DNA of 64,000 bases, taken from positions 930,001 through 994,000 of the forward strand of contig OZ287079.1 in assembly GCA_965645245.1 (NCBI GenBank). The letters are read 5' to 3'. The translations under genes and the position numbers were made by a program. The notes beneath the pieces are model-generated. The model did not search any database. It was given only the letters and a program-made list of their open reading frames with translations, and was not told the DNA's origin. Position 1 is the first letter of the stretch; every line of letters starts with the position of its first letter. Shown here in pieces: positions 25,895 through 27,012 of this stretch. Source of the stretch: Massalongia carnosa (taxonomy: Eukaryota).

Positions 25895-27012
25895 ATGTCG
25901 TACGCTGCGACTGCGGCGAAACTGCCGAGGCAATCGCCTGAAGAGGTAGGTTCTCTTTAGCCCTTTGTGCATAGATGAGACCGCAGATGGTGAAGTAGGT
26001 TGATACTGACTTGGTGTAGGCGTAAGTAATCCTTTCTCGCCACATGCTCGTGTGAATTTTCCCCGCGCACTGTGCTAGTTGCTCTTTGGAGCAGTTCCAG
26101 AAGAAGCCTCATGGTGCCAGCTTCATGCCATGAAGCTATCCTCTCGATTCGTATTGACAATCGATTCCGCTAACCACTAACATACTCTCTCCAGCCGAGC
26201 GCCAGCACCCCCCTCGATCGAGCCCACTGAACCCTCAAGTTCATATCACGACATTTCCTCCCCCCACGTCTCCTCCATATCATCCGAGGACGCGCGTAAG
26301 GAATTCTCCGAACCCGCCGAAACGATCGAAACGGCCGAAGAGAAAACGGCACAAACGACACAACGATCCAAAGAAAAGGCTGCCGAAACTAGCCGGGGCG
26401 CAGAGGAGAAGTCGTCTCAAGCAAGCCAAGAAGCAAAAGAAAAAACCTCTCAGACCGCACAAACCACTAAGGAGAAGACGTCTCACGCTGCGCAGACCGC
26501 GAAAGAGAAAGCGTCTCAAACCACGCAAACCGCCAAAGAAGAAGCCTTCACTTTCTCCGAAGAAGCCTCCTCCAAAGCCGACGAGCTTATGGATGACGCC
26601 GCCGCCAACTACGAAAAAGCGAAGCGCGTTGCCTCGAAGAAATCGCACGAGGCCAAGGGAAAAGCGGTCGAGGCACGGGATGACCTAAGCGCTAACCGGG
26701 ACAATCCTGTGGTTGTGGCTAACGCCGTCTTGCTTGCGGTTGCGGGCATTGGGTTGGGAGTCGGAGCGTATCAGAAGCATGCCAAAGGGGAGTTGGGCTG
26801 GAGGGTTGTAGGGGCTTGGGCGGGGGTGGTAGGATTCTTGGCTGCGGGAGACTATTATTTCAGCCAGTGAGTTTTTATCTATATTTTTTTTCCTTACTAT
26901 CGCTCTTACTGGGAAAATGGGTGGGTAAGAGGCACAATAGGTTGGAGAATTAGGAGGCTAATCTTTGTTTATGAATAGGTATTTGTTCAAGAACAAGTAT
27001 CCTAAGAAATAA
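25895..27012 (+). CDS. OM14: OM14-like mitochondrial outer-membrane protein containing LEA3-type 11-mer repeats
   Basis: Exons 25895-25945, 26020-26021 (2 nt), 26195-about 26866, about 26979-27012. Product MSYAATAAKLPRQSPEEARAPAPP...NPVVVANAVL...GVVGFLAAGDYYFSQYLFKNKYPKK*; the termini match my recollection of fungal OM14. Confidence 0.75.

Follow-up and report, generated by a model that had tools for sequence, protein, structure and literature searches.

Two described systems are among those that come closest to the gene that we report here. In the accessible part of PMC8916117, Om14 of yeast is presented as an abundant protein of the outer membrane with three predicted membrane segments, whose N-terminus lies on the cytosolic side and whose C-terminus reaches the intermembrane space; its function is called unresolved in the accessible parts of PMC8916117 and PMC4268710, where a role in a porin/Om45 complex or as a receptor for NAC and ribosomes is proposed. 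The second system are the late embryogenesis abundant (LEA) proteins of group 3, whose 11-residue consensus TAQAAKEKAGE is given in excerpts of PMC8123400 with apolar residues at positions 1, 2, 5 and 9 along with charged or amide ones at positions 3, 6, 7, 8 and 11. LEA-type 11-mer helices dedicated to mitochondria are found in pea LEAM and in tardigrade RvLEAM: for LEAM, the same excerpts report protection of liposomes and, in the dry state, an interaction with membranes (PMC8123400), and RvLEAM, as presented in the accessible part of PMC4326354, has nine LEA-like 11-mers and is probably a matrix protein without hydrophobic segments. In a 64,000-nucleotide stretch of Massalongia carnosa DNA (contig OZ287079.1 of assembly GCA_965645245.1, positions 930,001 to 994,000; this whole stretch is the window in what follows) we found a four-exon gene on the + strand, 25895-27012, whose 252-residue product appears to unite both systems. 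It consists of a short conserved head, a hydrophilic, helix-forming stalk of 11 x 11 residues, and a Gly/Ala-rich two-helix hairpin with a basic tail, which would serve as the membrane anchor.

Like Om14 of S. cerevisiae and other OM14_C proteins, the window protein is small, carries a C-terminal hydrophobic domain and has an N-terminal part that would face the cytosol (PMC8916117, accessible part). It differs from them in its length of 252 residues, compared with 134 for the Atlas representative (yeast Om14 itself being compared by description), and in its 121-residue repeat helix, for which the short yeast-type protein has no room. With LEAM and RvLEAM it would share a LEA-type 11-mer helix dedicated to mitochondria. 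LEAM, however, is a soluble, imported protein, whereas the window protein would stay anchored outside the organelle by its own hairpin. Its gene structure, repeats, family match, helix prediction, amphipathic periodicity, match to the LEA pattern and distribution all have computational support. The reading that we favour, tentatively and at a little less than an even chance for the chain as a whole, is that of an outer-membrane-anchored, cytosol-facing, LEA-like amphipathic helix that protects on drying.

Probable membrane anchor, repeat array and gene structure

The ATG was located at 25895 and the stop codon at 27010-27012, so that the gene limits proposed in an earlier reading of this DNA, made from the letters alone and called the sequence-only reading below, are right. 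The features of the gene are the following.

25895..25945 (+): exon 1, 51 nucleotides, opening at the ATG; MSYAATAAKLPRQSPEE, the conserved N-terminal peptide of the family
25946..26019 (+): intron 1, 74 nucleotides; GTAGGT ... CTGAC ... TAG, with canonical donor, branch and acceptor as read from the sequence
26020..26021 (+): probable 2-nucleotide micro-exon GC, putatively supplying bases 1 and 2 of the Ala codon within the conserved EEARAPAPP
26022..26194 (+): intron 2, 173 nucleotides; GTAAGT ... CTAAC ... CAG
26195..26866 (+): exon 3, the main coding exon; its translation, P0001 (26196-26867), has 224 residues
26196..26333 (+): conserved Ser/Pro-rich N-terminal region, RAPAPPSIE...SSPHVSS...; low AlphaFold2 confidence (block means 49-70, residues 1-50)
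26334..26564 (+): seven clear tandem 11-residue units, consensus AKEKTSQTAQT; the group-3 LEA register starts at 26322 (TIETAEEKTAQ ...)
26565..26696 (+): continuation of this register by four further units, all degenerate, ASSKADELMDD, AAANYEKAKRV, ASKKSHEAKGK and AVEARDDLSAN, each with Ala first
26703..26864 (+): OM14_C-like membrane hairpin, AlphaFold2 helices 171-196 and 202-223; Gly/Ala-rich (AVAGIGLGVGAY, GAWAGVVGFLAAG)
26867..26978 (+): intron 3, 112 nucleotides; GTGAGT ... CTAAT ... TAG
26979..27012 (+): exon 4, which completes a Gln and adds YLFKNKYPKK and the stop; conserved basic C-terminal tail

All searches were run with the unaltered exon-3 translation P0001. The Pfam profile OM14_C (PF17304) matches its residues 170-223 with an expectation value (E) of 2.7e-5 and 25.0 bits over profile positions 5-61 of 70, and the full-length relative P0002 likewise reaches 25.0 bits. 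Among the aligned relatives, 17 of 20 match OM14_C at E<=0.01, the best of them with 5.4e-8, and several relatives carry a precomputed PF17304 label. The top Atlas look-alike (0.93, 211/256 features) is an ascomycete cluster of 480 members named 'OM14 C-terminal domain-containing', followed at 0.88 by an 'OM14' cluster, the one with the 134-residue representative. The Atlas recognition value of 2243 lies slightly below the 2300 mark, and an Atlas search with the stalk alone gave no usable match. Taken together, these matches support the assignment of the protein to the OM14_C family, and by family its membrane would be the outer one of the mitochondrion, the stalk pointing into the cytosol. 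Among named relatives, Pseudocyphellaria aurata and Lobaria immixta (Lobariaceae) come closest, with about 70% identity over the C-terminal half. The sequence-only reading had placed the repeats between an OM14-like N-terminus and hydrophobic helices. The C-terminal helices do match OM14_C; the Pfam likeness is not N-terminal, where what we see is conservation among relatives from the Pezizomycotina.

The array itself is unambiguous. The seven 11-mers quoted in that reading (AEEKTAQTTQR, SKEKAAETSRG, AEEKSSQASQE, AKEKTSQTAQT, TKEKTSHAAQT, AKEKASQTTQT and AKEEAFTFSEE) stand letter for letter at 26334-26564. Their mean pairwise identity is 4.86 of 11, compared with 1.51 +/- 0.24 when the 77 residues are shuffled, and none of 5000 shuffles reaches it; at the DNA level, Tandem Repeats Finder reports a 33-nucleotide period at 26436-26544 (3.3 copies, 71% matches). 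The estimate had been about seven to eight units; the register does not end with the seventh but runs on through the four degenerate units to the anchor, ending just three residues ahead of the first membrane helix. By themselves, the degenerate units show no significant likeness, since 132 of 5000 shuffles attain their identity, and their stretch is best read as the ancestral membrane-proximal amphipathic helix that is common to the family. Where two units carry the same amino acid, 57 of the 102 codon pairs nevertheless use different codons. The copies are thus not fresh slippage products, and the residues were kept, a pattern of synonymous divergence that argues for maintenance of the protein motif.

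After exon 1, the remainder of the protein is carried by a long open frame at 26181-26870 (+). Joining exon 1 to this frame in phase takes two extra bases, and for this reason the GC micro-exon is needed. Only the model with this exon yields ...SPEEARAPAPP..., which is the junction in the short spliced contigs of the relatives P0002, P0026, P0022 and P0039; the same four share the exon 1 start pattern MSYA..AAK.P.QSPEE. Five candidate models with a single intron were rejected. All of them rely on GC or weak donors and lose the conserved SPEE-A-RAPAPP, and the 2-nucleotide exon is therefore preferred. The repeat exon is the third exon only if this probable GC exon is accepted. Near-invariant residues of the exon-3 head are R1, A2, P3, P6, S16 and D19-D21, and the basic tail encoded by exon 4 recurs in the relatives P0002, P0016, P0026 and P0098.

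A gene model that requires such an unusual exon raises the question of whether the repeats are part of the mature mRNA at all, or whether the locus is a decaying gene copy. A second frame across the repeats (26158-26688, +; 176 codons, rich in Lys, Arg and Pro, without the conserved flanks) is also open, which follows from the A/G-rich, stop-poor repeat DNA. We nevertheless consider an annotation artefact very improbable. A single frame runs unbroken from RAPAPP through the repeats into the conserved membrane domain, and all three introns have canonical signals; exon 3 is free of GTRNGT donors and thus gives no hint that splicing removes the array. In relatives, both junctions occur together with arrays in short spliced contigs (P0002, P0026 and P0055; 1044-1751 nucleotides).

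Two observations concern the micro-exon in other species. The annotated proteins of Alectoria and Xylographa read EEAYV..., as would be expected if GC were joined to exon 1 and the GTAYGT donor were read through, and the gene models of Pseudocyphellaria and Lobaria are garbled at exactly this spot (25946-26194 in the window). It seems from the sequences that the lineage of the window gained the extra 74-nucleotide intron, two bases upstream of the older one.

Likeness to group-3 LEA proteins and the predicted helix

Read from P0001 residue 43, the seven units are identical to TAQAAKEKAGE at 39 of 77 positions, with apolar residues at 24 of 28 and charged or amide residues at 33 of 35 of the prescribed places; Thr and Gly were counted as apolar, which is our choice. 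The remaining ten registers give at most 17 of 77 identities. By its sequence, the array thus conforms to the published group-3 LEA definition in one register only, and the likeness to this motif that had been proposed from the letters alone is borne out. When the 77-residue array was compared exhaustively by phmmer with 1.84 billion representatives, nine matches at E<=0.001 were obtained. Four of these are plant proteins or plant-containing clusters, namely Acer, Platanthera, Pistacia and a cluster with the Mangifera 'late embryogenesis abundant protein 2'. The rest comprise an unnamed ENA protein with similar repeats, a bdelloid rotifer membrane protein, an ERp29-like protein and two unrelated repeat proteins; OM14-family proteins are absent from the nine. 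Outside its own family, the array thus appears to have its nearest sequences in plant LEA proteins. In BLASTP the array is 52% identical to the mango protein over 75 residues, compared with 38-43% for an orthologous array. The nine matches of the exhaustive search conflict with the outcome of a word-indexed one, also made with the repeat region, in which none of 1890 candidates reached E<=0.001.

The TAQAAKEK-type LEA protein of Mangifera indica (P0157) resembles the window array in having contiguous 11-mers that obey the same position rules, in its extreme hydrophilicity and even in its weak Pfam echoes of Apolipoprotein, YtxH and Mitofilin. Unlike the plant sequences, which are without a membrane anchor, the window array is fused to a hairpin and to a conserved fungal head. 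The plant and fungal arrays most likely arose independently, the fungal one, as its sequence suggests, by amplification of a unit that was already present in the family.

Arrays of this kind also occur in other settings. In P0152, an unnamed Logan record of 671 residues, a long 11-mer array (…AYDAVKEKTSD…) splits the N- and C-terminal domains of ERp29; this would be a LEA-like array in the frame of a chaperone of the endoplasmic reticulum lumen, and a second case of grafting onto an organelle protein. P0155 from Rotaria sordida (877 residues, named after a trans-Golgi membrane protein), one of the nine array matches, contains GEGxKEKxGQx 11-mers by the tens together with a hydrophobic segment at the C-terminus.

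We then modelled P0001 with AlphaFold2 on a 79-sequence alignment (mean predicted local distance difference test score, pLDDT, 76; predicted template modelling score, pTM, 0.36). The model contains a single uninterrupted helix of 122 residues (46-167) that takes in all eleven units, with block pLDDT values of 88-97 for residues 51-120, and after a three-residue break the hydrophobic helices 171-196 and 202-223. Over the 121 repeat residues the hydrophobic moment is largest at 99 degrees per residue. Its value for an 11/3 helix, at 98.18 degrees, is 0.245, compared with 0.069 +/- 0.036 for shuffled sequences, and none of 2000 shuffles reaches this value. Unit positions 1, 5, 8 and 9 (Ala, Thr, Ser) form a weakly apolar stripe flanked by Lys 2 and Lys 4, with Glu 3 opposite; the stalk as a whole is highly hydrophilic (grand average of hydropathy, GRAVY, -1.59; mean Eisenberg hydrophobicity -0.40). 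As modelled, the repeats would form a coherent 11/3 amphipathic helix. A Foldseek search of the PDB with the model gave no match at E<=10, and a sequence search of the PDB gave only phospholipase C beta at E 0.18, which we take as chance.

Helices with 11/3 periodicity and Lys at the polar-apolar boundary are shared by apolipoproteins A and E, alpha-synuclein, the perilipins, and the bacterial YtxH and DUF883 (ElaB/YqjD) proteins. ElaB and YqjD are anchored in membranes and associated with ribosomes, and the helix of perilipin 4 is long and weak. In Pfam, the window array is echoed only by such 11-mer amphipathic families, all of them far below cut-off: YtxH with E 0.0015 (19.3 vs 37.5 bits) and Apolipoprotein with E 0.3 (11.2 vs 90 bits), while echoes of Synuclein (E 0.28-0.81) and DUF883 were obtained in orthologues only. 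These echoes, a class-A-like arrangement of Lys 2 and 4 beside the apolar stripe with Glu 3, and the position of the helix within three residues of the membrane hairpin would suit a helix that binds surfaces constitutively in the hydrated state, as perilipin, alpha-synuclein or apolipoprotein 11-mers do. It would find packing-defect lipids in its own membrane, in droplets or in other organelles and would act in contacts, curvature or lipid handling. We think this quite unlikely. The apolar face of the array, much weaker than in those families, is almost only Ala and Thr, which at the hydropathy values given above is weak for binding in water; moreover, the nearest sequences are LEA proteins and not perilipins or apolipoproteins. 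The weak Ala/Thr face together with the LEA likeness thus favours binding that is promoted by water loss over constitutive binding.

Distribution and growth of the stalk

A profile search yielded 439 relatives, 120 of them listed, and 146 proteins were examined. Measured from the DVDS motif to the membrane motif N.DNP, the linker could be determined in the 130 proteins with both anchor motifs; 16 were dropped, mostly open reading frame calls truncated at the N-terminus. Among the matches listed, 103 proteins have linkers of 55-75 residues, which are usually free of a lag-11 signal, this lag scoring best in 12. The linkers of another 27 proteins span 84-169 residues, with the best self-similarity at lag 11, 22 or 33 in 24 of the 27; in the other three lag 7 is best, but Ala still opens the units of the 11-residue register. 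Within the same listed set, long linkers (89-150) occur in six of seven named Lecanoromycetes, namely Alectoria, Psora, Physcia, Pleopsidium and two Xylographa; the seventh, Pseudocyphellaria, has a linker of 75, and not one of the 41 linkers from other named fungi is above 74. Class assignments were checked for 14 species and are presumed for the remaining ones. The sequence-only reading had called the expansion lineage-specific. This is true of copy number and unit sequence, but Alectoria, Psora, Physcia, Pleopsidium and Xylographa carry comparable arrays, of other unit sequence, in the corresponding position.

The way in which the linkers differ is regular. Lengths within one type differ by exact multiples of 11 (proteins of 177, 188, 199 and 210 residues; linkers of 115, 126, 137 and 170), and counted back from the membrane motif the units begin with Ala in all lineages. 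Over the last 44 residues of 144 proteins, including unexpanded ones, apolar residues recur with a period of 11, position 1 holding A/L/I/F in 84% and position 8 A/L/F/I/V in 85%. Unit sequences vary by lineage, with AKEKTSQTAQT in the window and TKQKSSEVADK, AKDKYDEVSHE and others elsewhere. In five of six arrays the units are more alike within than between arrays, the exception being P0005 with 3.47 within and 3.64 to the window. This comparison of unit identities points to separate amplifications of a shared ancestral helix. A near-threshold match to HMG_box (E 4.8e-5, 24.1 vs 25.4 bits) was seen for the Pleopsidium-type AKxKYDEVSHE arrays of P0108 and P0113; judging from the sequences, it is probably a chance likeness of helices rich in Lys, Tyr and Glu.

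The apolar preference at positions 1, 4/5 and 8 in the membrane-proximal 44 residues of the 144 proteins is also what a hendecad coiled coil would show, with a/d/e/h-like positions driving right-handed self-association into oligomeric rods on the surface, and the membrane helices, which read as Gly-zipper-like, could pair as well. We regard such rods as improbable, since the core positions of the expanded units are Ala, Thr and Ser, too small and too polar for a stable core. The low pTM of 0.36 and the empty Foldseek comparison with solved structures point the same way.

Variable copy number also suits a simpler role for the stalk. In an Om14-like docking site for NAC and ribosomes or in a porin/Om45 complex, the array could merely set the distance between head and membrane and drift in length by slippage, with no link to drying. 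Indeed, conservation is much stronger in the head, MSYA..AAK.PKQSPEE-RAPAPP..S.LIDVDSPH, than in the stalk, close relatives already differ freely in copy number (177 to 210 residues), and the expansion follows taxonomic class and not drought-hardy life styles. However, a spacer need not keep the 11/3 amphipathic pattern or the phase with the membrane motif across arrays of differing unit sequence, and the synonymous divergence with kept residues points to selection on the motif. Helices of the Glu/Lys/Arg type stand alone in water, and the Ala/Thr/Ser/Gln-rich stalk is not of that type. Growth in multiples of 11, in phase with the anchor, favours a helix that lies on a surface over a mere spacer, such steps being what would keep the stripe of a long helix on one flat surface. 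A spacer or receptor stalk is in our view unlikely, though by no means negligible. That the Lecanoromycetes repeatedly lengthened the helix of an outer-membrane protein in 11-residue steps, in phase with its anchor, and that the window unit converged on the LEA consensus, we put forward as possible, if on the doubtful side.

Proposed mechanism, its weighing and its meaning

In the favoured reading of a drying protectant, the stalk would have grown by tandem duplication of an 11-residue unit from the ancestral membrane-proximal amphipathic helix, and in the window lineage the unit, AKEKTSQTAQT, would by now agree with the group-3 LEA consensus of plants. While the cell is hydrated, the stalk with its Ala/Thr face would be mostly disordered or loosely attached. 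As water is lost, it would fold into a straight 11/3 helix of about 18 nm by our arithmetic (121 residues x 1.5 A, the rise of a helix being 1.5 A per residue). The weak apolar stripe with its flanking Lys residues could then rest on the surface of the outer membrane, while the Glu/Gln/Ser/Thr face would hold water, sugars or polyols. The bilayer would thereby be stabilised, and fusion of the crowded organelle membranes would be prevented. The outer-membrane location, the orientation, the folding on drying and the protection we infer from the data above.

Several points weigh against this reading. The expectation that the array tracks desiccation tolerance found no support. The expansion is missing from Cryomyces antarcticus, Coniosporium and Exophiala, the first two of which we take to be very drought-hardy rock-inhabiting fungi, and it is also missing from lichen-formers of other classes (Candelina and Pycnora of the Candelariomycetes, Chaenotheca of the Coniocybomycetes, and Thelocarpon and Endocarpon, the latter of the Eurotiomycetes). 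Caeruleum, which NCBI lists as incertae sedis, likewise shows no expansion. Even in the nearest relatives, the lichen fungi Lobaria and Pseudocyphellaria, the number of such units is only about two. Life as a lichen hence does not require a long array, and on these sequences the expansion appears to track the class Lecanoromycetes and not drying tolerance as such. The OM14_C score lies 1.1 bits below the curated gathering cut-off of 26.1 bits. The two hydrophobic helices of the AlphaFold2 model stand against three predicted segments in yeast Om14, so that, as modelled, the yeast topology cannot simply be transferred to the window protein. The confident AlphaFold2 helix is silent on disorder in water, and periodicity arises from tandem duplication by construction. 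Likeness among low-complexity A/K/E/T/Q repeats can be compositional convergence. In the 800 nucleotides upstream, we found neither a stress response element (STRE, AGGGG/CCCCT), the lack of which also counts here, nor a TATA box; the one sequence resembling a heat-shock element (TTCTTGAA at 25135) comes from a scan graded as not informative. Finally, LEA_4 (PF02987), the second profile named in the sequence-only reading beside OM14_C, gives no match at E<=10 with the whole protein or with the array alone. In a control, however, the plant LEA protein 2 (P0157) itself reaches only E 7 and 7.1 bits with LEA_4, and across the plant TAQAAKEK proteins P0153, P0154 and P0157 the profile gives E 3-7 or no match. 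Because LEA_4 misses these plant proteins too, its silence is no evidence against LEA-type repeats. The orthologue P0087 matches LEA_4 with E 4.5e-8 and 33.3 bits, below the 51.1-bit cut-off.

The frames around the gene were compared with Pfam as follows.

14978-16264 (-): MFS_1 frame
21523-22227 (+): FAD_binding_4 frame
24399-24986 (+): Ldh_1_C frame
30478-31122 (+): thiamin pyrophosphokinase frame
35464-37692 (+): MIF4G frame

A further frame at 29355-30008 (-) has no Pfam match. The neighbouring frames (14978-37692) carry ordinary housekeeping domains, and nothing links them functionally to the gene. About 190 nucleotides downstream of the stop lies an inverted repeat with 50-nucleotide arms (27200-27249 and 27396-27445, 76% complementary, 146 nucleotides apart), which from its sequence looks like a small terminal-inverted-repeat element (27200-27445).

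In summary, a family of small fungal proteins is found here in which a modular array stands between a conserved head and an OM14_C-type anchor, with a natural length of about 4 to about 13 units across species. Both components are known; their fusion and recurrent expansion appear to be undescribed. Our literature search, with most subscription journals outside its scope, gave no paper that links OM14-type proteins to LEA repeats or to desiccation, and according to a 2021 review, LEA work in lichens has been confined to the photobionts, that is, the algal partners (PMC8073698). For studies of how 11-residue amphipathic repeats evolve, the family makes a clean example, with what look like independent amplifications at one site, in multiples of 11, one of them converging on the LEA consensus of plants. 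Little is understood of how lichen fungi come through complete drying again and again, and the gene family is a concrete and cheap test object for this question. If the Lecanoromycetes did repeatedly lengthen this helix and the window unit did converge on the LEA consensus, as put forward above, the protein would be the first LEA-type protectant to be anchored in a membrane at the surface of an organelle, and a determinant of lichen anhydrobiosis on the fungal side.

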